Assembly: GCF_963921235.1 (NCBI RefSeq)
Contig: NC_086108.1
Coordinates: 14,198,001-14,262,000, forward strand
DNA from: Mobula hypostoma
Lineage: Eukaryota
Length of the DNA: 64,000 bases
Direction: 5' to 3'
In this document: one piece after another, positions 2,264 through 57,580 of the stretch
Layout of the letters: every line of letters starts with the position of its first letter
Numbering within the stretch: the stretch's first letter is position 1
Notes under the pieces: generated by a model
What the model saw: the letters and a program-made list of their open reading frames with translations, nothing else
The model's database searches: none
What the model was told of the DNA's origin: nothing
Translations under genes and position numbers: made by a program

Positions 2264-2428
2264 GTACCATCCAAAGTCATGAAATCTGTGTAAATTACAA
2301 AATAAGTGCAAAACGAAAAGTATAATGAGGTAAACAACAGGAATTCTGCAGATGCTGGAAATTCAAGCAACATACATCAAAGTTGCTGGTGAACGCAGCA
2401 GGCCAAGCAACATCTGTAGGAAGAGGTG

Positions 2429-2466
2429 CAGTCGACGTTTCAGGCCGAGACCCTTCGTCAGGACTA
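2429..2466 (-). ncRNA. Minimal type I hammerhead ribozyme motif, core intact
   Basis: UAGUC CUGACGA AGG-GUCUCGG-CCU GAAA CG UC GACUG: conserved core, stem I, stem II, palindromic ACGU in place of stem III. Confidence 0.85.
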
Positions 2467-2762
2467 ACTGAAGGAAGAGTGAGTAAGGGATTTGAAAGTA
2501 GGAGGGGGAGGGGGAGGTCCAAAATGATAGGAGAAGACAGGAGGGGGAGGGATAGAGCCGAGAGCTGGACAGGTGATAGGCAAAAGGGGATATGAGAGGA
2601 TCATGGGACAGGAGGTCCGGGAAGAAAGACAAGGAGGGGGGGGTGACCCAGAGGATGGGCAAGAGGTATATTCGGAGGGACAGAGGGAGAAAAAGGAGAG
2701 TGAGAGAAAGAATGTGTGCATAAAAATGAGTAACAGTTGGGGTACGAGGGGGAGGTGGGGCC

Positions 2763-3506
2763 TTAGCGGAAGTTAGAGAAGTCGATGTTCATGCCATCAG
2801 GTTGGAGGCTACCCAGACGGAATATAAGGTGTTGTTCCTCCAACCTGAGTGTGGCTTCATCTTTACAGTAGAGGAGGCCGTGGATAAACATGTCAGAATG
2901 GGAATGGGACGTGAAATTAAAATGTGTGGCCACTGGGAGATCCTGCTTTCTCTGGCGGACAGAGCGTAGATGTCCAGCAAAGCGGTCTCCCAGTCTGCGT
3001 CGGGTCTCGCCAATATATAAAAGGCCACATCGGGAGCACCGGACGCAGTATATCACCCCAGTCGACTCACAGGTGAAGTGATGCCTCACCTGGAAGGACT
3101 GTTTGGGGCCCTGAATGGTGGTAAGGGAGGAAGTGTAAGGGCATGTGTAGCACTTGTTCTGCTTACACGGATAAGTGCCAGGAGGGAGATCAGTGGGGAG
3201 GGATGGGGGGGACGAATGGACAAGGGAGTTGTGTAGGGAGCGATCCCTGCGGAATGCAGAGAGAGGAGGGGAGGGAAAGATGTGCTTAGTGGTGGGATCC
3301 CGTTGGAGGTGGCGGAAGTTACGGAGAATAATATGTTGGACCCGGAGGCTGGTGGGGTGGTAGGTGAGGACCAGGGGAACCCTATTCCTAGTGGGGTGGC
3401 GGGAGGATGGAGTGAGAGCAGATGTACGTGAAATGGGGGAGATGCGTTTAAGAGCAGAGTTGATAGTGGAGGAAGGGAAGCCCCTTTCTTTAAAAAAGGA
3501 AGACAT
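2763..3506 (-). pseudogene. PLE ORF 3' part: RT thumb, Cys linker, GIY-YIG endonuclease (5'-truncated)
   Basis: CKQNKCYTC linker; GVIYCVRC..C..LYIGETRRRL..RF..H; C-terminal LEEQHLI...GMN. Confidence 0.92.
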
Positions 3507-4002
3507 CTCCCTCGTCCTAGAATGAAAAGCCTCATCCTGAGAGCAGATGCGGCGGAGACGGAGGAATTATGAGAAGGGGATGACGTTTTTGCAAGAGACA
3601 AGGTGAGAAGAGGAATAGTCCAGACAGCTGTGAGGAGAGTCAGTGGGCTTATAGTAGACATCAGTGGATAAGCTGTCTCCAGATACAGAGGCAGAAAGAT
3701 CTAGAAAGGGGAAGGAGGTGTCGGAAATGGACCAGGTAAACTTTGCCTCCAACTTTCACCCTGCCTTCGAGTTTACCTGGTCCATTTCCGACACCTCCCT
3801 CCCCTTTCTAGATCTTTCTGTCTCTGTCTCTGGAGACAGCTTATCCACTGATGTCTACTATAAGCCCACTGACTCTCACAGCTGTCTGGACTATTCCTCT
3901 TCTCACCTTGTCTCTTGCAAAAACGCCATCCCCTTCTCATAATTCCTCCGTCTCCGCCGCATCTGCTCTCAGGATGAGGCTTTTCATTCTAGGACGAGGG
4001 AG

Positions 4003-4746
4003 ATGTCTTCCTTTTTTAAAGAAAGGGGCTTCCCTTCCTCCACTATCAACTCTGCTCTTAAACGCATCTCCCCCATTTCACGTACATCTGCTCTCACTCC
4101 ATCCTCCCGCCACCCCACTAGGAATAGGGTTCCCCTGGTCCTCACCTACCACCCCACCAGCCTCCGGGTCCAACATATTATTCTCCGTAACTTCCGCCAC
4201 CTCCAACGGGATCCCACCACTAAGCACATCTTTCCCTCCCCTCCTCTCTCTGCATTCCGCAGGGATCGCTCCCTACACAACTCCCTTGTCCATTCGTCCC
4301 CCCCATCCCTCCCCACTGATCTCCCTCCTGGCACTTATCCGTGTAAGCAGAACAAGTGCTACACATGCCCTTACACTTCCTCCCTTACCACCATTCAGGG
4401 CCCCAAACAGTCCTTCCAGGTGAGGCATCACTTCACCTGTGAGTCGACTGGGGTGATATACTGCGTCCGGTGCTCCCGATGTGGCCTTTTATATATTGGC
4501 GAGACCCGACGCAGACTGGGAGACCGCTTTGCTGGACATCTACGCTCTGTCCGCCAGAGAAAGCAGGATCTCCCAGTGGCCACACATTTTAATTCCACAT
4601 CCCATTCCCATTCTGACATGTCTATCCACGGCCTCCTCTACTGTAAAGATGAAGCCACACTCAGGTTGGAGGAACAACACCTTATATTCCGTCTGGGTAG
4701 CCTCCAACCTGATGGCATGAACATCGACTTCTCTAACTTCCGCTAA
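4003..4746 (+). pseudogene. PLE ORF 3' part (mirror copy): RT thumb, Cys linker, GIY-YIG endonuclease
   Basis: 247-aa ORF that differs from 2763..3506 at only two residues. Confidence 0.92.
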
Positions 4747-5048
4747 GGCCCCACCTCCCCCTCGTACCCCATCTGTTACTCATTTTTATGCACACATTCT
4801 TTCTCTCACTCTTCTTTTTCTCCCTCTGTCCCTCTGAATATACCTCTTGCCCATCCTCTGGGTCACCCCCCCCCCCTTGTCTTTCTTCCCAGACCTCCTG
4901 TCCCATGATCCTCTCGTATCCCCTTTTGCCTATCACCTGTCCAGCTCTCGGCTCTATCCCTCCCCCTCCTATCTTCTCTTATCATTTTGGATCTCCCCCT
5001 CCCCCTCCCCCTCCTACTTTCAAATCCCTTACTCACTCTTCCTTCAGT

Positions 5049-5086
5049 TAGTCCTGACGAAGGGTCTCGGCCTGAAACGTCGACTG
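5049..5086 (+). ncRNA. Minimal type I hammerhead ribozyme motif, core intact
   Basis: tagtc CTGACGA agggtctcggcct GAAA cg TC gactg. Confidence 0.85.
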
Positions 5087-5399
5087 CACCTCTTCCTACA
5101 GATGCTGCTTGGCCTGCTGCGTTCACCAGCAACTTTGATGTATGTTGTTAGTATAATGAGGTAGTGTTCATAGACTCAAAGATCAGCACAACACAGAAAC
5201 AGGCTCTTTGGTCCTTCTAGCCCGTGCCAACTATTATTCTGCCTGGTCCTTTTGACATGCATCCAGAACATAGCCCTTCATACCTCTCCCATCTATGTAC
5301 TTATCAAAACTTCTCTTAAATGTTGAAATCGAGCTCACGTGCACCATGCTCTCACAGCCCTCTGAGTGAAGAAGTTGCCCTTCATATTCTGCTTAAACT

Positions 5400-5810
5400 T
5401 ATCCTCAGACTCTGAAGTAAACATAGCTGCTGGTGTGCCTTTTTCATAATTTCATCAATCTGTTGGGCTCAGGATAGATATCCTAGCACTGAGGAACTTA
5501 AATGGTCACTCTTTCCCCCACTGATCTTTCATTGAGGACTGGGAGATGTTCTTTCAAATTTCCCTTCCTGAGGCCCATGATCAATTCATTCGCCTTGCTG
5601 ATGTTGACTGTGAAGTTTTGTTGCAACATCTCGCTCTTTCCTTCTCAGTTGTGTACATCTCCTCATTGTAATCTGAGATTTTACCAATAACAGTTGTGTC
5701 ATCTGTGGATTTATAGATGGCATCGGAGCTGTCCTTGGAGAGTAGAATGGAAGGCTTGAAACAATTCATGATGGTAGATGTTAGAGTGACTGGGAGTAGT
5801 CAGTAAGTCA
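5400..5810 (-). mobile_element. Degenerate Rex1/Babar-type LINE RT fragment
   Basis: AIYKSTDDTTVIGKISD motif in ORF 5581..5769. Confidence 0.7.
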
Positions 5811-6090
5811 CTTCATGAAGGCAGTTAGTCATTCCTCAGCTATGAACAGTTCTCAGTAACTGAACCCTGCAGTAACCCGGGGACTGTCTGCATTAGCTCT
5901 TCCCAAGCTCCCCTGGTTGACTGCATCAAGTAGCACAATGAATCTGCCTGACTGGTCAGTTGTCTGGGAAGATGGAGTCTGTATGACAAACATGGCACTT
6001 ATTTACAAAGAGTGCAGAATGAGTAACAAAACAGCAGTGGGCCCCCTTGGCAGGCAGCAGAAGAGAACAGAGACACCAAATGCCCTGGCA

Positions 6091-7220
6091 GACACAAGAA
6101 ACAGCAGATACTGGAATTTGGAGGAAGAAATGAACTGCTAGAGGAACTTGGCCGTTCAGACAGCTTCTGTGGAGGGAAATGCAGAGCTGAAGTTTTGATT
6201 CGAGAGCCTTCATCAGGACTGAAAGATAGAGGGAAGATAACTGGTATAATGAGGTGAGGGGAAGGGATGAAACAAGAGCTGGCAGGTGATAGTGGATCCA
6301 GATGAGGAAGGATGACAGACAGGATGGGGGATGGGAGTGTGGCTATAGTTACAGAGGCTGGGAGGTGATTGGTGGAGATGACTCCTGATGTTGCCTTCTC
6401 TATTTCACTGAGCACCTTCAAACATGGCCAGCTGAAGCTCCTGGGTACCAGCCATTTTAATTCTCCTCTCCATTCCAACCTCAAGGCAATGGCAAACCAC
6501 TTCTGTTAGAAAAATTTGCCAAGAACAAGCATGGTCATGGAAAGACCATGATTGCCTATATCACATATCATGGCATATAACGAACGAGCAAACCTTATTC
6601 CAACACCAACCTGTCAGTCTGTCCTCAGCCTTTTCCACATCATTGGTGAGGCTAAACACAAATTAGAGAAAAAACATTTCATTTTCTGCTGGTGTATTCG
6701 AGAAACCAACAACATGAGCATTGAATTATTCAACCTTTGACTAACTGTTCACCTCTGTCCCTTTTCTCTCTCCTCCTGATCTGCTCAGTTTTTACTAAAT
6801 TCCCCAATTTTCATCACCTTGTTTCTTTTCCCTTTCCCCTCCTCCACCCATTCCATTTTGTCCATCACCCACACACTGCTCACATTGGGACTTTCCCCTA
6901 CTGTTCCCACCTGCCCCCCTCTATCTATCTACCTCCCTTGATTCCTTGCTCCACCTTCCTCTCCTATCAGATTCTACCAACTGCTGCCCCTTCTGTTCTC
7001 CACCTCTCACCTCCCAGTCTCTTGTGCTATTTCCATTCCTCTTTTCCTCCATCTGCTCATCACCCCTCTGCCAGCTCTTGTCCCACCCCTTCCCCTCACA
7101 GCTTTATACTGATTGTCTCTCTCAATCTTTGAGAAAGGTCTTGACTTGAGAGGACACTTTCCATTTCCCTCCACAATGCTACCTGACCTGCTGAGTTATT
7201 CTGGCATTTAGTTTATTGTT
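6091..7220. mobile_element. Old Penelope-like element with head-to-head inverted architecture
   Basis: Minus-strand 3' end with decayed hammerhead (about 6185-6221); plus-strand GIY-YIG end and 3' region; direct repeat ATGCCCTGGCA at 6080-6090 and 7226-7236. Confidence 0.75.
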
Positions 7221-7518
7221 CCAATATGCCCTGGCACATTTCTAGGATTAATTGCTGTCATTCTCAGACACATTGTAAGTCATAGTGGTTACACTTTAGA
7301 TGTTTGTCTGGAGAGTTGGCAATAATATAAATGGGCTTGTGTCTTGATGGAATGCTGCAACCCATGTTTTTTACAGAAATCCTTTAAATTCAAGTGTACT
7401 TGATTATGGAGCATGTCCTGTCATACTAATGTCCCAATTTGCTTACCGACAAGAGTTTATGTCTCTGCTAAGCTGAGAATATTTTAATGTGTCTGGAGTT
7501 GTTCTTGTCCTGCAGGAG

Positions 7519-13030: not shown

Positions 13031-13357
13031 AGGGTATTGGAGTTTCTGTATCAGGCTGTGATGCAACCAGTCAATATACTCTCCACCATACATCTATAGA
13101 AGTTTTTCAAAGTTTTAGATGATATTCCAAATGTACACAAACTTCTAAGGAAGTAGAGGTGCTGCTGTGCTTTCTTCATAATTGCACTTACATGCTGGGC
13201 CCAGGACACGCCCTTAGAAATGATAACACCAAGGAATTTAAAGTTGCTGACCCTCTCCACCTCTGAGCCCCTGATGAGGACTGGCTCATGGATCTGTTTT
13301 CTTCCTCATGAAGTCAATAATCAGCTCCTTGGGCTTGCTGACATTGAGTAAGAGGTT

Positions 13358-14106
13358 ACGCTGGGGTGATATACTGTGTCCGGTGCTCCCGATGTGGCCT
13401 TCTATATATTGGCGAGACCCGACGCAGACTGGGAGATCATTTCGTTGTACACCTACGCTCTGTCCGCCAGAGAAAGCAGGATCTCCCAGTGGCCGCATAT
13501 TTTAATTCCACGTCCCATTCCCATTCTGATATGTCTATCCACAGCCTCCTCTACTGTAAAGATGAAACCACACTCAGGTTGGAGGAACAACACCTTATAT
13601 TCCATCTGGGTAGCCTCCAACCTGATGGCATGAACATTGACTTCTCAAACTTCCACTAGTGCCCCACCTCCCCCTTGTACCCCATCTGTTATTTATTTAT
13701 TTATTTATATATACACACACACATTCTTTTTCTCTCTCTCCTTTTTCTCCCTCTGTCCCTCTCACTATACCCCTTGCCCATCCTCTGTGCTTTATCCCCC
13801 CCTCCCCCTTTTCTTTCTCCCTAGGCCTCCTGTCCCATGATCCTCTCATATCCCTTTTGCCAATCAACTTTCCAGCTCTTGGCTCCATCCCTCCCCCTCC
13901 TGTCTTCTCCTATCATTTCAGATCTCCCCCTCCCCTTCCCACTTTCAAATCTCTTACTAGCTCTTCCTTCAGTTAGTCCTGACGAAGGGTCTCGGCCCAA
14001 AACGTCGACTGAACCTCTTCCTAGAGATGCTGCCTGACCTGCTGTGTTCACCAGCAACTTTTATGTGTGTTGCTTGAAATTCCAGCATCTGCAGATTTCC
14101 TCGTGT
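13358..14106 (+). mobile_element. 5'-truncated Penelope-like element (GIY-YIG end + 3' region with tail)
   Basis: ORF 13366..13659 IYCVRC..LYIGETRRR; direct repeat TTGAGTAAGAG(G/A)TT at 13344-13357 and 14107-14120. Confidence 0.92.
13974..14011 (+). ncRNA. Hammerhead motif, core mutated (GAAA to AAAA)
   Basis: tagtc CTGACGA agggtctcggccc AAAA cg TC gactg. Confidence 0.65.
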
Positions 14107-14382
14107 TTGAGTAAGAGATTGTTGTTTTGGCACCACTCTGCCAGATTTTCAATCTCCCTCCTATATGCTGATGTTTCATTCACTTTAATTTGGCCAACAA
14201 CAGTGGTGTGGTCAGCAAATCTGAATATGGCATTGGAGCTGTGTTTAGTGTCTTAGTGTCACAGTAGCAAGTAGAGCAGGAGGGTAAGCACACAGCCTTG
14301 TGGTGCAACTGTGTTGATAGTGATTGTGGAGGAGATATTGTTGCCAATTTGAGCTGACTGGGGTCTGTAAGTGAGGAAGCTC

Positions 14383-22708: not shown

Positions 22709-22794
22709 ACACAAAAAATGCCGGAGGTGCTCAGCATCTATCGAAAAGAGCAAAACAGTCAACGTTTTGGGCCGAGACCCTTCATCAAGACCAT
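22709..22794 (-). mobile_element. 86-bp PLE-derived mini element consisting of little more than a decayed hammerhead and the 3' end
   Basis: Exact 14-bp direct repeat CAGGTATAGGGAAC at 22695-22708 and 22795-22808. Confidence 0.85.
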
Positions 22795-23509
22795 CAGGTA
22801 TAGGGAACCATGGTTTCTGAGAGAAATTGAGGCCCTGGCTAAGAAAAGAAGGAGGTGCGTAGCAGGTATAGATGGACAGGAACAAATGAGGTACATGAGG
22901 AGTATAAGAAATGTAAGAGAACACAAGCAGGAAATCAGAAGGGCTCAAAGAAGCCATTAGATTGCTCGAGCAGACAAGGTGAAGGAGAATCCCAAGGGGT
23001 TCTTCAGATATATTAAGAGGAAAAGGATAGCAAGGGACAAAATTGGTCCACTGGAAGATCAGAATGATAATCCTTGTGTGGAGCTGAAAGGGACGGGGGA
23101 GAACTTAAATGTTTTTTTGCATCTGTATTTACTTGGGAGATGGACAGAGTCTATCGAAGTGTTGCAAAGCAGCAGCACTGGGTCATGGACCCGATGCAAA
23201 TTACAGAAGAAGAGGTGTTTGCTTGCTTGAGACAAATTAGGGTGGATAAATACCCAGGGCCTGCAAGGTGTTCCTTTGGACCCTGTGGAAGGCAAGTGCT
23301 GAAATTGCCAGGGCCCTAGTAGAGATATTTGAAATATCCTTAGCCATGGGTGAGATGCTATAAGATTGGAGGATAGCTAATGTTGTTCCATTGTTTAAGT
23401 ACTCTCAAGACTAAGCCAAGCAATCGTAGGGTGGTAATGGGAAAGTTATTGGAAGGTATTCTAAGGGACCAGATATGTAAGTATTTGGATAGACAGGAAC
23501 TGATTAAGG

Positions 23510-24346: not shown

Positions 24347-26301
24347 AAGGATAGTCAGCATGGCTTTGTGCATGGTATGTCATGTCTAACCAATATTATA
24401 GAGTTTTTCAAGGAAGTTACCAGGAAAATTGATGAAGGCGAGGCAGTGGATATGCAGAGATTTTACAAAAACTTTTGACAAGGTCCTACGATGGGAGGTT
24501 GGTCATAAAGGTTCAGTCGCTTGGCATTCAAGATGAGTAGTAAATTGGATTAAGCATGGGCTTCACAGAAGAAGCCAGAGAGTGGTTGTAGATGGTTGCC
24601 TCTCTGACTGGAGGCCTGTGGCAAGCGATATGCTGCAGAGGTCAGTGGCTCTGTTGTTGTTTGTCATCCATATCAATGATCTGGATGATAATGTGGTTAA
24701 CTGGATCAGCAAGATTGGGGATGTAGTGGACAGGGAGGAAGACTAGCAAAGCTTGGAGCAGGATCTGGACCAGCTTGGAAAATGGGCTGGAAAATGGTAA
24801 ATGAAGTTGATTGCAGTCAAGTGTGAGGTGTTTCACTTTGGGAGGACAAACCAGGGTAGGTCTTACACAGTGAGCAGTAGGGCACTGAGGGGTGTGACAG
24901 AACAGAGGGATCTGTGAATACCGATCCATAATTTCTTGAAAGTGGTATCACAGGAAGAAAACTTCTGACATATTGGCCTTCATAAATCAATGCATTGAGT
25001 ACAGGAACGGTATGTTATGTTGAAATTTATGAGGCCTGCTTTGGAGTATTGTGTGCACCTACCTACAGGAAAGATGTAGATAACATTGAAAGAATGCAGA
25101 GCAAATGCTTCTGGGACTTGAGAACCTGAATTGTAGGGAAGGGCTGAATAGGTTAGGACTCCATTTCCTAGAGCATTGGAGAGAGAGTGGAGATTTGACA
25201 GAGATATACAAAATTAAGAGGGGTATAGTTTGGTTAAGTGCAAGCAGGCTTTTTCCACCGAGGTTGGGTGAGACTATAACTTGAGGTCATGGGTTAAGGG
25301 TGAAAGGTAAAATGAGGAACATGGTGAGTGTGTGAAACGAACTACCAGCAGAAGGGTGGATGTACTGTAGGTTTGATTTCAACATTTAAAAGATATTTAG
25401 ACAGGTACATGGATGGGAGGGCATTGCAGGGCTATGGTCCAGGTGCAGGTTGATGAGACTAGGCAGATTCATGGTTTGGCATAGAGTGGAGGTGCTTAAG
25501 AACCTCTTTCTGTGCTGTAGTGTCCCATGACTCTGTGAGGGGTCTCAACCTGAAACATCAACTGTTCATTTTCCTCCACAGATGCTGCCTGACCTGCTGA
25601 GTTCTTCCAGCATTTGTGAGTTACCCGATTTCTCCTCCCAGTAATGTCTTGTAGCAGCAGGGTAACCTTTATACATGATCTATGAAGATGGTCAATTATT
25701 GCCATCTAATCATGTTAACAACAGCATCTGGCTGGTGATTTTGAGAGTCTAACTAAACTGCAATGTTCTGTCTTCCTCCTTGACTTAGTCGTGTTCGGCC
25801 TGCTGTGCTTGGTAGATGGGGAGAAAAAAGCACCTTGAAAAGTGGTGGTGAGGAGGAGGAATGTAAGAGATGCATGCTTGCACCATCTGCATTGTGTAAA
25901 TCAGCAATGTGTTTAAAGGGAAATAGGATGTTAGAAGAGTGGTTAGTCATAAGCAACTTCTGTGTTCCCAGTGGCTGAGGCGTTCAGCAACAGTGAAGCC
26001 TCTCACCCAGAGTATTGCACATATGCATGTTTGGCACCAGTCACTGCTGTTTACCAGTTCACCTTGTCCTGCAAGAAAGAAGGAACTGTGTCAGTCAGTG
26101 AATGTCATGTCTGCTAGATGTCGCTGAAGAGGTAGAAGTTGGAAGATGTCTTTGTGAGTTGTAGAGGAATGATTAGTGTGTGAAGGCAGTGAGGAAGAGG
26201 TATGAATTGTGAATGGTAGTTCTTTCTCATTTGGTGAATGGGGCTGTGTTCTATGGAGTGATGGGTGAGGCTTAGGTTGAATTTGGGGATGAAGTAGTAG
26301 T

Positions 26302-28144
26302 AGTCGCGTAGGGAGCGATCCCTGCGGAAAGCAAGGGAGGGAAGGGAAAGATGTGCTTAGTGGTGGGATCCCGTTGGAGGTGGCGGAAGTTACGGAGAAT
26401 TATATGTTGGACCCGGAGGCTGCTGTGGTGGTAGGTGAGGACAAGGGGAACCCTATTCCTAGTGGGGTGGTGGGAGGATGGAGTGAGAGCAGATGTGCGT
26501 GAAATGGGGGAGATGCGTTTGAGAGCAGAGTTGATGGTGGAGGAAGGGAAGCCCCTTTCTTTAAAAAAGGAGGACATCTCCTTCGTCCTGGAATGAAAAG
26601 CCTCATCCAGATGCGGCGGAGACGGAGGAATTGCAAGAAGGGGATGGCATTTTTGCAAGAGACAGGGTGAGAAGAGGAATAGACCAGGTAGCTGTGAGAG
26701 TCCATAGGCTTATAGTAGACGTCAGTAGATAAGCTGTCTCTGGAGATAGAGACAGAAAGATCAAGAAAGGGGATGGAGGTGTTGGAAATGGACCAGGTAA
26801 ACTTGAGGGCAGGGTGAAAGTTGGAGGCAAAATTAATGAAGTCAATGAGCTCAGCATGCATGCAGAAAGCAGCGCCAATGCAGTCGTCGATGTAGCGAAG
26901 GAAAAGTAGGGGACAGATACCAGTATAGGCTTGGAACATGGATTGTTCCACAAAGCCAATAAAAAGGCAGGCATAGCTGGGACCCATATGGGTGCCCATG
27001 GCTGCACCTTTAGTTTGGAGGAAGTGGGAGGAGCCAAAGGAGAAATTATTAAGAGTAAGGATTAATTCCGCTGGACAGAGCAGAATGGTGGTGGAGGGGA
27101 ACTGGTTGGGTCTGGAATCCAAAAAGATGTGGAGAGCTTTGAGACCTTCCTGGTGGGGGATGGAAGTATGTAGGGACTGGAAATCCATAGTTCAAATAAA
27201 GCAGTGGGGGCCAGGGAACTTAAAATCATCGAAAAAATTCAGAGCGTGAGAAGTGTCACGAACATAGTTAACGCGACTCCCTTGTCCATTCGTTCCTCCC
27301 CCATCCCTTCCCACCGATCTCCCTCCCGGCACTTATCCTTGTAAGCGGAACAAGTGCAACACATGCCCTTACACTTCCTCCCTCACCACCATTCAGGGCC
27401 CCAGACAGTCCTTCCTGGTGAGGTGACACTTCATCTGTGAGTTGGCTGGGGTGATATACTGCGTCCGGTGCTCCTGACGCGGCCTTCTATATATTGGTGA
27501 GACCCGACACAGGCTGGGAGGCCATTTTGCTGAACACCTACGCTCTGTCTGCCAGAAAAAGCAGGATCTCCCAGTGGCCACACATTTTAATTCCACATCC
27601 CATTCCCATTCTGATATGTCTATCCACAGCCTCCTCTACTGTAAAGATGAAGCCACACTCAGGTTGGAGGAACAACACCTTATATTCCGTCTGGATAGCC
27701 TCCAACCTGATGGCATGAACATTGACTTCTCTAAGTTCCATTAATGCCCCACCTCCCCTTCGTACCCCATCCGTTATTTATATATTTATTATTATTATTA
27801 TTATTATTATTTTTCTCTCTCTCCTTTTTCTCCCTCTGTCCCTCTCACTATACTCCTTGCCCATCCTCTGGGCTTCCCCCCCCCCTTTCTTTCTCCCTAG
27901 GCTTCCTGTCCCATGATCTTCTCATATCCCCTTTGCCAATCACCTGTCCAGCTCTTGGCTCCATCCCTCCCCCTCCTGTCTTCTTCTATCATTTTGGATC
28001 CCCCTCCCCCTCCCACTTTCAAATCTCTTACTAACTCTTCCTTCAGTTAGTCCTGATGAAGGGTCTCAGCCCGAAACGTCAACCGAACCTTTTCCTAGAG
28101 ATGCTGCCTGGCCTGCTGCGTTCACCAGCAATTGTTATGTGTGT
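26302..28144. mobile_element. Penelope-like element with inverted 5' segment (RT core on minus, GIY-YIG and 3' end on plus)
   Basis: Minus: MDFQSLHTSIP, GAAMGTHMGPSYA, LRYIDD; plus from 27271: Cys linker, YIGET, hammerhead motif. Confidence 0.92.
28048..28085 (+). ncRNA. Hammerhead motif, core intact, stem I weakened
   Basis: tagtc CTGATGA agggtctcagccc GAAA cg TC aaccg. Confidence 0.7.
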
Positions 28145-30199
28145 CACAAGGATTCTGACAGGATTTAAAGGCTTGAGTTATTAGGAGAGACTGGAAAGGC
28201 TGGTTCTGTTTTCTCTGGAGTAAAGGAGGATGAACGGTGACCTTATACAGGTTTACAAAATCATTCTGTGCCATCTCTAGCTTAATTACATCCTTCTTTT
28301 ATAATGGCATATCGCATTCTTGCAGAAGTGTTTTAAACCGTGCTGTAGTACAAAGTCTCTGTCGAGCTGACTGTGATACAACTGTGCATTTCTGCAGACA
28401 GAGTGATACGATACATAGTTGTAAGTACCAGCATGTAGCGCATCCCTGTTAGGATTGTAGTGATGTTTTGTTTCTATAGAGTGAGTGTCAGGTTAGACTA
28501 ATGTCAGCAGTAGGGAAAACACCAGAATCTATTGTTAGGAAAGTGGTAGCAGAGCACTTGGAAAACAATAACAAAAATAGGTGGTCACACAACACAGAGA
28601 AAGTCCAAGATTCCCATTTAAACTTGCCCCATTTTAGAATTAGAATCTGGTTTATTTTCACTGTATGGTACGTCATGAAACTTGTTGTTTTGTGGAAACA
28701 AAGACAGAATTACTATAAATTACAAAATAGACAATGCAAAAATAGAATAATGAAGTCGTGTTGTTGAACTGTTCAGAAATCTGATGTGGAGGGGCGAAGC
28801 TGTTGACCTGTAGGTCTTTAGACTTCTGTACTTTCTTCCTGATGGCAGTAATGAGAAGAGAGCATGTCTTGCATGGGAGTGGGAGCCTTCAGTGATGGAT
28901 ATCACTTTCTTGAGGAACTGCCTTATGTGGATGACCTTTTGGTCAATATCCCTTTTTCTCTCCATGTACCTGACCAGTACCTTTTAAATACTGTTAATGT
29001 ACTTGCCTCAAAATGTTCTATATAAGTACTCTGTGCAAGAAAATGTACTTCAGGCTCCTATTAATTCTCTCCCCTCTCCCCTCTCTCATCTTAAACCTAC
29101 GCCGTATAGTTCTTGATTTCCGAACCCCGGGGAGAAAAGAGGGCATTCACCCTATCTATGCTCCTCATAACTTTATACAACTCTATAAGATCACTCCTCA
29201 TTCTCCAAGACTCTAATAAATAAATTCTTAGCTTGGCCAACTCAGTACCTCAGGTTCTGGTAACATCCTTGTAAATCTCTGCACTCTTTCTGGCTTAATG
29301 TCACCTTTCTTATATTAGGGTGACAAGAACTGAACATGACATTCCAAGTATGACCTCACCAATGTCGTGTGCAACTGCAACATTATATCCCAACCTCCAC
29401 AATCTATAACTCAGGAGATTCTGCAGAAGCTGGAAATCCTGAGTATGCTGGAGGAATTCCTCTTCAAATGCTGCCTGATGCATTGAGTTCCTCCAGCATT
29501 TTGTACTTTACCCTGCCCTGACTGATGAAAACGATTGTGATTGCAGTGATGTTTCTATAGAGGGAGCATCTCCCCCACAGACCAGTTAGATTGACGTCAG
29601 TATAAGGAAAATACTAGAAGAATCTATTGTCAGGACAGTGGGAACCGAGCACTTACAAATAATAACTCTAATAGGTAAAGTCAACATACAGTTAAGTATG
29701 AAAAGTGCCTTTTGACTAACCTGTTCGTGTTTTGAGGTTGTGACGAGCAGAATGGGTAAGAGCAAATCAGCTGATCTGTATTTGTACTTCAAGAAGGTCT
29801 TTGATGAGGTCCCATATGAGACACTTCAATCAAAGTAAAGGGCATGACACTAAGTGTAAATTACTGGACAGGATTGAATATTGATGGACAGGGTACATTC
29901 AGAGTGAGCAGCTCATTCCTGGGCTGTGAGACTATTGCAAGGGGAATTGCTGCTGAGGCTTCCAGCTGTTCAGAATCTATGACAATAATCTAAATGAGGG
30001 ATCAGGCAGTTTAAATGGTTTGGCATGGACTAGGTGGGCCAAAGGACCTGTTTCTGTGCTGAACTTTTCTATGACTCTATATCCAGATTTGCTGATAATA
30101 CAAAGCCAGTGGAAGTGGATGTGACAGGGCCCCAGACTGATTTCAAGTGAATTTAGGGAGGCTAAGTTAAGATCAAAAGGATTGCAAAGACAAAACAAG

Positions 30200-46865: not shown

Positions 46866-47024
46866 ACACAAGAGATACTGCAGATGCTTGAGCAACACAC
46901 AAAACTGCTGGAAATTTTCAGGGTCCTGATGAAGAGTCTCCTGCTTGCAACGTCAACTATTTGTTCCCCTTCACGGATACTGCCTGACCTGCTGAATTCC
47001 TCCAGTATTTTGCAGAGCCTGCTC
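46866..47024. mobile_element. 159-bp palindromic PLE-derived mini element with decayed hammerhead
   Basis: Reverse 3' tail on the left, gtcCTGATGA...GCAAcgTC and 3' end on the right; exact 14-bp direct repeat AAGACTCACTCCAG at 46852-46865 and 47025-47038. Confidence 0.85.
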
Positions 47025-53715: not shown

Positions 53716-54616
53716 CCTGTTTTTAAATCTTGATTGAGGATCTTATTGAAAGGTAGCTCTTTTTATGTCCTCCCACTTGGTGATTGATTGCAGCGCAACT
53801 CCCATCACCGAGGTACGATTAGTGTTGTGAATGTTGTTTCAAGAACCTGATGGTTGTAGAGAAGAAGTTGTTCTTGAACCTGGTGGTGTGGGACCTCAAA
53901 CTTATGTACCTCCTGTCTGGCAGTACCAATGGAAGGAGGGCAGGATCATCTGGGATTCTTGAAGATGGATGCCACCTTCTTGAGGCAGTGTCTCCTGTAG
54001 ATTCTGTTGACGGTGGGGAGGGATGTGCCCATGACAGACTGGGCTGTGTTCACTATTCTCAATAATCTCCTGTGTTTCTGTACATTGGAATTGCCAAAGC
54101 AGCTCATGTTGGACAGAGTAGATGTGGAAAGGTTGTTTCCCTTGGTGGGTGAGTCCAGGACAAGAGGCCATAGTCTTAGAATTAGAGGGTACCCAGTTAA
54201 AACAGAGATGAGAAGAATTTTTTTTAGCCAGAGGGTCGTGGATTTGTGGAATTCGTTGCCACATACAGCTGTGGAGGCCCGATCATTGAGGGTGTTTAAG
54301 GAGGAGATTGACAGGTATCTAATTAGTCAGGGTATCAAAGGGATATGGGGAAAAAGCTGGAAATTGGAACTAGATGGATGAATAGTTTAGCTCACGGGGG
54401 AGCTGTGGAGCAGACTCACTGGGCCGAATGGCCTACTTCTGCTCCTTTGTCTTGTGATCTTGTGATGTTGCAAGCAGGATACCAAGAAGAACCAGTGCTG
54501 CTATGATGAGAATGACAAGCTCAAGGAACTAATCAACCACAGATGGGATGGGAAGTTCTTACTTATTGAAGGAAAAATGTGGCAGAGATGGAAAACCCCC
54601 TGACCTAAAGAACATA

Positions 54617-55136
54617 CACTCAGTGGCCACTTTATTTGTTACATCTGTACAATTACTCAGTAATGCAGATGTCTAATCAGCCAATCATGTGGCAGCAAAC
54701 CAATATATAAAAGCAGAATAGGGGAAGAAATGTGATCTAAGTGACTTTGACTGTGGAATGATTGTTGGTGCCGGACAGGGTGGTTTGAATATCTCAAAAA
54801 ATGCAGATCTCCTGGGATTTTCACACGCAACAGTCTCCAGAGTTTACAGAGAATGGTGCAAAAAAAAAATCCATTAAGTGGCAGTTCTGTGGGGGAAAAC
54901 ACCTTGTTAATGAGAGAGGTCAGAGGAGAATGGCCAGACTGGTTCAAGCTAACAGGAAGGTGACAGTAATTCAAATAACCACGCATTCCAACAGCAGTTG
55001 TGCAGAAGAACATGTCTGAATGCACAACACATTGAACCATGAAGTGAATGGGCAACATCAGCAGAAGACCATAAGCATATATTCAGTGGCCATGTTATCA
55101 GGTACAGGAGGTACTTAATGAAGTGACCACTGAATG
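54617..55136 (+). mobile_element. Tc1-derived MITE (duplicated in reverse at about 56956-57490)
   Basis: TA-CACTCAGTGGCCACTTTATT...AATGAAGTGACCACTGAATG TIRs; transposase N-terminal remnant MIVGARQGG..ADLLGFSH..VSR. Confidence 0.85.
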
Positions 55137-56340
55137 TTAGTGGATGGTGAGAATCCAAGAAACAATATACTGGCAGCAGGAACGTAACCCATGTGAGTTC
55201 TTCAGTGATGGAAAAGCCATATGTGCTTCAAACACCTGAAGCCTCACCCAGTGAGAGCCAAAGCCAGTAGTGAACTCAATACAGATGGACAGGTTGTCAG
55301 CATTAATCCAAAGGCGCACTTAAAAGATGTTCTCAACTATTTAGTTCCCTGACCTCCGTAACTGGGCGAGCCTTGCTGCTATCCCCAACTGACAAGATAT
55401 AGAGGAGGTCAGATTACAACTTGAAAGTAGCAAGAAGGTCCATGATGACAGCTGAAAACTCACAATTCTACAATCTCATCTTCTGGGGGAAGGATGAAAT
55501 TCAAAGTAAATGTAATTATCATTAAGAAGGGCAATACTCTTGATTTCCAAATCAGAAGTCAGTACACTGAAACACACCCTTTGGCTTAATTCATCCAAGG
55601 TGCCCACCCAAATTAGTCCCATTTTCTGCATTGGCCATACTCTTTCTAAACCTTTCCTATCCATGTACCTGTCCAAAAATCTTTTAAGTATTGCTACTGT
55701 ACCACCTCTACCACTTCGTCTAGCAGCTTGTACCATATATCCACCATCCTCTGTGAGAAGAAGTTGCCCCCTCAAGTCCCTTTTAAATCTTTCACTTCTC
55801 ACCTTAAACCATGCCTCTAGGTTTTGGTTCCCTTCCCCTGGGAAAACAAACTCATCTGTCTATATCCTCATGATTTTATTCACCTATTTAAGGTTGCCCC
55901 CTCTTCTGCGATGTTCCAAGGAATAAAGATCTAGCCAGCCCCTTCTCTCGCTGTAACTCAGTTCCTCCAGCCCTGGCAACATTCTCATAAATTTTCTTTA
56001 CACTCTTTCCAACTTGATGATGTTATTTTCACCTCATTTCAGTGCTCCACAAATGTAGGGATCTCCACCCTCTTCAAAACATGGCTGTCTGTCATTTCAT
56101 TCAAGTGTTTAATGCCTTCAGTCAGGAGAGACTGCTACACTAATGGTTGTGATGTGCTCAAGTGAGCCAAAGGGTCATAAAGTGCTCAGCTTTAGCGATC
56201 TGTAGAAACACAGAACGTAGAACAGTACATCACAGGAACAGTCTCTATGGTCCATTAGTCTGTGATGACCACAGTACCAACTTCAATTGCACATCTGTCT
56301 ACAGATACAGTGTTTGATCCAGGGAAGCCATGATACTAAC

Positions 56341-56541: not shown

Positions 56542-57580
56542 CTGAAAGAACAAGGACCTCTGCCAACTTGCCCCATTTCCATAATGAAATAGTGATTAAT
56601 GTTGTGAAGGTTGGTTTAAGAACCAAATCGTTAAAGAGAAAAAGCTGCTCTTTAATCCGGTGATGTGAGACTTTCAGACTTGTGTATCTCCTGCTCAATG
56701 GTACCTGTGAAAAGATGGCAAAGAGTGGATGGTGGGAATCTTTGATGATGTGGCCTTCTTGAGATACAATGGATAGTGGAATGGAATGTGTTTATGATGT
56801 ATTGGTGAGAGACCAGCTGGAATATTGTGAGTAGTTCCGTTATCATACTGTAGGAAGGATATGAATAAGCTGGCGAGGGTGCAGAGAAGGCTCACAAGGA
56901 TGATGTTGGAACTGCTGCCAGTATATTGCTTCTTGGATTCTCACCATCCACTAATCATGCAGTGGTCACTTCATTAAGTACCTCCTGTACCTGATAACAT
57001 GGCCACTGAATATATGCTTATGGTCTTCTGCTGATGTTGCCCATTCACTTCATGGTTCAACGTGTTGTGCATTCAGACATGTTCTTCTGCACAACCACTG
57101 TTGGAATGCGTGGTTATTTGAATTACTGTCACCTTCCTGTTAGCTTGAACCAGTCTGGCCATTCTCCTCTGACCTCTCTCATTAACAAGGTGTTTTCCCC
57201 CACAGAACTGCCACTCAATGGATTTTTTTTGCACCATTCTCTGTAAATTCTGGAGACTGTTGCGTGTGAAAATCCCAGGAGATCTGCGTTTTTTGAGATA
57301 TTCAAACCACCCTGTCTGGCACCAACAATCATTCCACAGTCAAAGTCACTTAGATCACATCTCTTCCCCTATTCTGCTTTTATATATTGGTTTGCTGCCA
57401 CATGATTGGCTGATTAGACATCTGCATTAATGAGTAATTGTACAGATGTAACAAATAAAGTGGCCACAAATAAAGTAACAAATAAAGTGTATGTTCTTTA
57501 GGTCAGGGGGTTTTCCATCTCTGCCACATTTTTCCTTCAATAAATAAGAACTTCCCATCCCATCTGTGGTTGATTAGTTG

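Follow-up and report, generated by a model that had tools for sequence, protein, structure and literature searches.

Head-to-head copies are a described feature of Penelope-like elements (PLEs). The accessible text of PMC3846280 describes a unit that has its pLTR inverted, is enclosed by a 9-bp target site duplication (TSD) and carries a 31-bp tail at one end, and it gives head-to-head as the most frequent form. In the available part of PMC8557442 an inverted truncated copy with a one-sided tail is common in PLEs, and the formation of their head-to-head units is called undefined. An earlier, sequence-only reading of the locus analysed here had given inverted arrangements and a short tail as known PLE features, and these two papers bear that out as far as their accessible text goes. 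For the Poseidon element PAc of Anolis carolinensis, the sections available of PMC11167929 report two in vitro reverse transcriptase (RT) starts that bracket the tail, cutting and extension of both strands, and a modelled dimer. For L1 twin priming, overlaps are short, with a median of 22 bp in the accessible text of 10.1101/2024.08.27.596794.

The ray unit described below lies in a 64-kb stretch of DNA (the window). It resembles Pen2a_Av of Adineta vaga (PMC3846280; PMC8557442) in its head-to-head orientation, its one TSD, a one-sided tail of 30-40 bp and a palindrome or overlap at the junction. Pen2a_Av-type units are, in the accessible descriptions, mostly short inverted pLTRs beside a longer ORF copy, whereas here two near-equal 1.4-kb arms are joined and there is no direct pLTR pair. 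The likeness to PAc (PMC11167929) covers two bracketing RT starts, two-strand cutting and extension, and a hammerhead upstream of the starts. However, PAc belongs to the Penelope/Poseidon clade and the ray element has the CX4CxxC linker of Neptune/Nematis; inverted insertions are not treated in the accessible part of the PAc paper. With L1 twin priming (10.1101/2024.08.27.596794; PMC11702581, both as available) the unit has in common that both target ends prime, that microhomology joins the products and that the TSD is kept. L1 cDNAs are adjacent with short overlaps, in contrast to the palindrome arms, which overlap over about 1,375 nt; the L1-type adjacency absent from the palindrome is found in a sister copy without TSD at 26298-28145. 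Long identity tracts between arms that differ elsewhere are also described for palindrome arm conversion (PMC3723533; PMC1803023, accessible text), although those palindromes are large and gene-bearing or conserved and the ray unit is a young dead transposon. Because head-to-head PLEs with a TSD and a one-sided tail have already been described, and two-start two-strand priming has been shown in vitro, the architecture itself is ordinary. New here are a 5-nt microhomology at the midpoint, a 668-nt block free of arm differences, and the twin-primed sister copy. A literature search by title and start of abstract, with most subscription journals and older PLE reviews outside its scope, found no work linking PLE head-to-head units to twin priming or to equal cDNA lengths, and nothing relevant on sharks and rays among the 20 papers listed; a retrozyme preprint had no passage bearing on the subject either.

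Architecture of the palindrome

The inverted pair 2368-3742 (minus strand) and 3770-5147 (plus strand) gives an alignment of 1,381 columns, in which 16 substitutions and two indels (3 and 6 nt) separate the arms; identity at aligned bases is about 98.8%. The whole unit is a 2.8-kb palindrome of two 5'-truncated PLE copies with arms of about 1.38 kb each, and this inverted-pair architecture is far beyond chance. Both arms are enclosed by an exact 14-bp direct repeat on the plus strand, AGTATAATGAGGTA, at 2319-2332 and 5150-5163. The near-perfect 2.8-kb palindrome with arms of about 1.4 kb and one 14-bp TSD around it, as proposed in the sequence-only reading, is thus what the alignment returns.

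The two outer ends are unlike. The left arm (2333-3743, minus strand, 1,411 nt including the microhomology) carries a 3' tail of 35 nt (2333-2367, minus strand), or of 33 nt if the TT at 5148-5149 is paired with its last two bases. The right arm (3739-5149, plus strand, 1,411 nt) is tail-less and ends with two extra T (5148-5149). At 5147 family contigs part from right-arm sequence and continue into the tail, and a copy ending near 14107 bears the same tail. An extra left-arm tail of about 36 nt had been claimed; its one-sidedness stands and its length is corrected.

At the centre, the spacer (3744-3768, plus strand) is element sequence running on from the right, tail-less arm, and the same context occurs in the sister copy at 26.3-27.3 kb (near 26.8 kb). 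The window has G at 3769, where 99.9% of the family depth in run X1 has A. Because the family reads A, the G is a later change, and the original microhomology was AACTT (3739-3743) with a spacer of 25 nt, compared with 27 nt today. This placement combines the arm alignment, the family base at 3769 and family sequence upstream of 3739 in loose contig ends; it agrees with the earlier assignment of an AACT(T) junction and of a 27-nt spacer to the tail-less arm. The AACTT overlap lies at the exact midpoint (3741) of the insert 2333-5149, a feature the sequence-only reading did not contain. The 1,411-nt lengths of the two strand-copies agree within 3 nt once later indels are removed. Among the available inverted 4- or 5-mers, 10-21% would match in length equally well by chance, and the equality is a hint at the copying mechanism from a single case noticed post hoc. 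Changes cluster near the palindrome centre (3766-3940), with adjacent-base doublets at 3884-3885 and 3939-3940 common to both arms; the cluster could come from error-prone synthesis at the junction.

The element and its relatives in the window

An ORF remnant at 3739-4746 (plus strand) holds the end of the RT, a CX4CxxC linker and a GIY-YIG endonuclease with CCHH. The GIY-YIG/CCHH region at 4450-4674 gave a Pfam match of E 4.5e-4 and 20.9 bits, below the cut-off of 22.6; the CCHH motif, whose two cysteines fall between GIY and YIG, was read from the translation by the definition in PMC8557442. An RVT_1 match (E 0.002) and a YIDD motif were found in the upstream part that is present in the sister copy. 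Between RT and endonuclease, the linker CX4CX2C (about 4339-4365) fits the CX2-5CxxC pattern that the accessible text of PMC8557442 gives as common to Neptune, Nematis and Naiad. An in-frame stop at 3940-3942 is common to both arms. Features of endonuclease-bearing PLEs found here are RT followed by a C-terminal GIY-YIG in one ORF, the CCHH motif, the optional 30-40 bp tail, an inverted truncated copy and a TSD. Judged from sequence features, the element is a PLE with a C-terminal endonuclease and the Neptune/Nematis type of linker, and probably belongs to Neptune, a label based on this linker, on the endonuclease position and on its host being a vertebrate. Of 73 proteins at E <= 1e-20, the nearest were gene models without a name in Mobula hypostoma (94%) and Hypanus sabinus, which points to a myliobatiform ray as host. 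The family is abundant and young in rays, and its DNA had no match in metagenome contigs, viral contigs or prokaryote genomes. Contigs of run X9 (RNA by guess) contained family matches, none of them listed as specific to the palindrome locus. As an object the PLE unit is an ordinary insertion and a dead copy, and no full-length copy with a direct pLTR pair was found in the 64-kb window. A Gypsy-type LTR retrotransposon, named from motifs, occupies positions 1-2263 on the minus strand; its gag, protease and RT frames are interrupted and its LTR ends 55 bp before the TSD.

Both arms contain a minimal type-I hammerhead motif, at 5049-5086 in the right arm (plus strand, predicted cut after 5081) and at 2429-2466 in the left arm (minus strand, ends transferred through the arm alignment). 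By the criteria of PMC4209133 it has the CUGANGA core, an unpaired base at 9/10.1, helix II, GAAA, a palindromic 15.2-16.2, a NUH site and a short helix I, and the 10.1-11.1 pair is G-U in both arms. Measured to the tail-less end, the motif is 66 nt upstream; measured to the tail end, it is 101 nt upstream. A hammerhead near the 3' end had been noted earlier, and as a motif it is there in both arms; it is of the minimal type, however, which the accessible text of PMC4209133 describes as inactive in monomers. Rfam returned no hammerhead match up to E 5 and, at the palindrome centre, generic hairpin matches only, below the gathering score; in minimum free energy (MFE) predictions the motif does not adopt the hammerhead shape. 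Inside the 1.4-kb dsRNA hairpin that the sequence-only reading predicted for transcription through the unit, it would be base-paired with the opposite arm.

A profile search of the window identified four young and five old PLE 3' ends of this group. Two of the four young ends are at the tail and two at the internal site. At 13360-14109 there is one lone arm, with a tail and a 14-nt TSD (one mismatch); together with its TSD (13344-14120) this copy sits within another LINE fragment. The copy at 26298-28145 is tail-less and carries a twin-priming inversion, in which the inverted arm (973 nt) starts where the forward arm (870 nt) stops, with a primer match of 4 nt; no TSD was found at its ends. 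Within 1 kb of the palindrome the head-to-head form recurs in an old, lopsided unit (about 6092-7225), in which a tailed short arm of about 290 nt faces a longer arm of 830 nt with no recognisable tail. Its flanks (about 6080-7238) hold a TSD of about 13 nt with one mismatch, and its arms are just about 66% identical. Two units have both 3' ends, and in each of them it is the arm extending less far in the 5' direction that bears the tail. Since the sister copies include tailed, tail-less and inverted forms, both strands of the target and both 3' ends are in use by the family in vivo. Three older PLE 3' ends (22731-22795, 25536-25619 and 46920-47006) have decayed hammerhead motifs and no inverted partner nearby. 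A second inverted duplication, not related to PLEs, was seen at 54527-55201 and 56885-57579; its halves agree at 654 of 697 columns, are separated by about 1.7 kb and contain an apparent Tc1-type remnant and flanks.

Origin of the inverted pair

We tentatively favour, at a little short of an even chance, a route in which both nicked strands primed one RNA, copied it jointly and annealed. On this view a Neptune-type PLE retrotransposed once, at about the time when two related ray lineages split. The GIY-YIG endonuclease would have cut the target with the 14-nt stagger that the TSD records. Both free 3' ends would then have primed the RT, with the top strand starting at the tail end and the bottom strand about 35 nt inside it, at an internal start, a step we propose because the end positions are seen here and two starts with two-strand extension were shown in vitro for another PLE. 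One RNA would have served both RTs: the one behind would have displaced the cDNA made by the one ahead, and the two would have stopped together after about 1.41 kb each. The cDNA 3' ends presumably annealed at AACTT/AAGTT, where the junction is seen, and were then filled in; the 25 nt copied by the leading, tail-less cDNA alone would therefore have become the spacer. Afterwards the arms would have mutated independently, with at least 668 nt probably homogenised by arm-to-arm conversion.

Several observations are in line with this joint copying from two primers. The exact 14-bp TSD agrees with the 14-nt and about 13-nt duplications of related copies, the young 3' ends are divided evenly between tail and internal site, and the twin-primed sister copy lies in the same window. 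The strand-copies are equal at 1,411 nt, the tail is on the less far-reaching arm in both informative units, rare states are common to both arms, and the match between the window and a contig of a second organism breaks off at the first base of the TSD. By analogy, the accessible text of PMC11167929 on PAc, which cuts and extends both strands from two starts, would also support it. Two-strand priming had been part of the sequence-only reading: it matches this in vitro result and the twin-primed sister, but the two long cDNAs it required are putative. Other points weigh against the whole route. The equal length is one case with a chance of 0.1-0.2, and the old 6.1-7.2 kb unit is asymmetric. Displacement of a 1.4-kb cDNA by a PLE RT is hypothetical, and in L1 twin-priming overlaps are short. 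The two extra T could also be explained if 33 nt were skipped from one to the other of the two TGTTG repeats on either side of the tail, and the contig over the right junction, with 23 element letters, may be from the source sample. The narrower proposal that a locked dimeric PLE RT primes both strands at two starts of one RNA and leaves equal-length cDNAs is, in our judgement, doubtful.

Simple fold-back had earlier been dismissed, as not explaining why the spacer belongs to the tail-less arm, and it is excluded; the same product is reached, however, if fold-back of a tail-less cDNA is combined with a short tail cDNA. One long tail-less cDNA would snap back at AAGTT/AACTT with a 25-nt loop, and extend itself; the new strand would then jump, where the two share a TGTTG end, to a short cDNA made from the top strand and covering the tail alone. 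We consider this a close rival, though on balance unlikely. It forces near-symmetric arms, the spacer on the tail-less arm and common rare alleles with no need for long displacement; inverted 5-mers with a 3-40 nt loop are available at 75 of 1,849 positions, and self-priming of the antisense strand is proposed for head-to-head PLE junctions in the accessible part of PMC3846280. Equal strand lengths, however, are not predicted by it, and one additional template switch is required. The 5-bp stem is also missing from the predicted fold of the bare cDNA end, but joint copying from two primers needs the same weak stem.

We regard as improbable a third origin with two RNA templates, either separate molecules or repeat units within one tandem transcript. 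Each would have been copied independently from its own nick, with both stopping by chance at nearly the same place, and later conversion would have spread rare alleles between the arms. PLE tandem transcripts exist according to the accessible text of PMC11167929, the identical block makes homogenisation likely, and the old unit, whose arms are about 66% identical yet whose TSD is nearly intact, could mean different templates. If lengths are exponential, two independent stops would fall within 30 nt of each other with a probability of 2-10%, although in an abundant family such coincidences must occur somewhere, and common rare states are also found outside the block, between arm differences.

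All of these presuppose that the palindrome is real, not an artefact, and we conclude that it is. Half or more of the sequence words were contained in 8 of 24 runs, four from one sample of organism A and four from one sample of organism B, and contigs of 4 of the 24 runs were aligned to 3714-6100. One organism A contig matches 5127-5298 across the right junction with zero differences, with just 23 letters on the element side, and may derive from the source sample. An organism B contig of 229 nt matches 5150-5298 and then departs, for 80 letters, exactly at the first TSD base, as expected of an empty site; organism B likely has the empty site, the check that the sequence-only reading had proposed. 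In the flank, organism B and the window disagree at 14 of 741 bases. Private changes were assigned at 17 sites to the left arm (8), the right arm (6) or neither (3). Assembly fold-back is unlikely because the flanks differ, the arms have private mutations and a related organism seems to be without the insert. An assembly or library fold-back as the source of the palindrome would be easier to entertain in that the centre junction is absent from the 15 of 748 contig joints listed; it is nevertheless very improbable, given different and collinear flanks with one TSD, 18 events of difference between the arms, unlike 3' ends, private changes in each arm (at least 8 in the left, at least 6 in the right), and a contig matching the right junction. 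Two separate insertions, the second landing at the end of the first, are scarcely credible even in a window dense in PLE copies, given a pair enclosed by a single TSD with no TSD where the arms meet, arms that are about 98.8% identical with common rare alleles when other window copies are 87-91% identical, and the apparent lack of the right arm at the TSD in organism B. With one TSD, of the length seen in sister copies, and the likely empty site, we hold with high confidence that the unit is a single PLE insertion, as first proposed.

History of the arms and meaning for the family

Differences between the arms, which the sequence-only reading had not placed, avoid 3927-4594. By stretch they number 4 in 157, 0 in 668, 3 in 152 and 9 in 401 nt, and random placement of the differences left a gap of at least 668 nt in 1-4 of 10,000 trials. 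There are 25 CpG in the 668-nt block (3927-4594, mirrored at about 2915-3582), and between block and sister copy 47 of 657 sites differ, vs. 7 of 152 in the next coding stretch. Low mutability was rejected as its cause on the CpG content and this ordinary divergence, and polishing toward the family consensus on the rare alleles kept there. Arm-to-arm conversion is the simplest reading that this one haplotype suggests, and the block is a candidate conversion tract.

The states at 3867, 3940 and 4535 are common to both arms, and 98.8-99.9% of the family depth reads otherwise (X1). In an incomplete allele table, 10 residues are seen in at most one outgroup row; all eight of those inside the arms are shared, three of them outside the identical block. 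Some shared rare residues are subfamily alleles (about half of the family depth reads otherwise at 4447). Shared rare alleles may also arise by later conversion, and therefore they do not prove one template. Divergence between the arms is 1.2% overall and 2.3% outside the block, not distinguishable from the 1.9% between organisms A and B.

The value of the locus is as a clean footprint of head-to-head PLE formation. In an abundant young ray family the position of the junction, the side of the tail and the side of the spacer can be counted over many copies, which could separate locked two-primer copying from fold-back. Conversion on small transposon palindromes, as the identical block suggests, would bias their dating. 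If a locked RT pair does make these units, it would leave as its fingerprint in genomes near-perfect palindromes with a midpoint junction and with the spacer in the tail-less arm, arm-to-arm conversion would then keep such palindromes partly identical, and the origin of PLE inverted insertions would become testable across ray and shark genomes.
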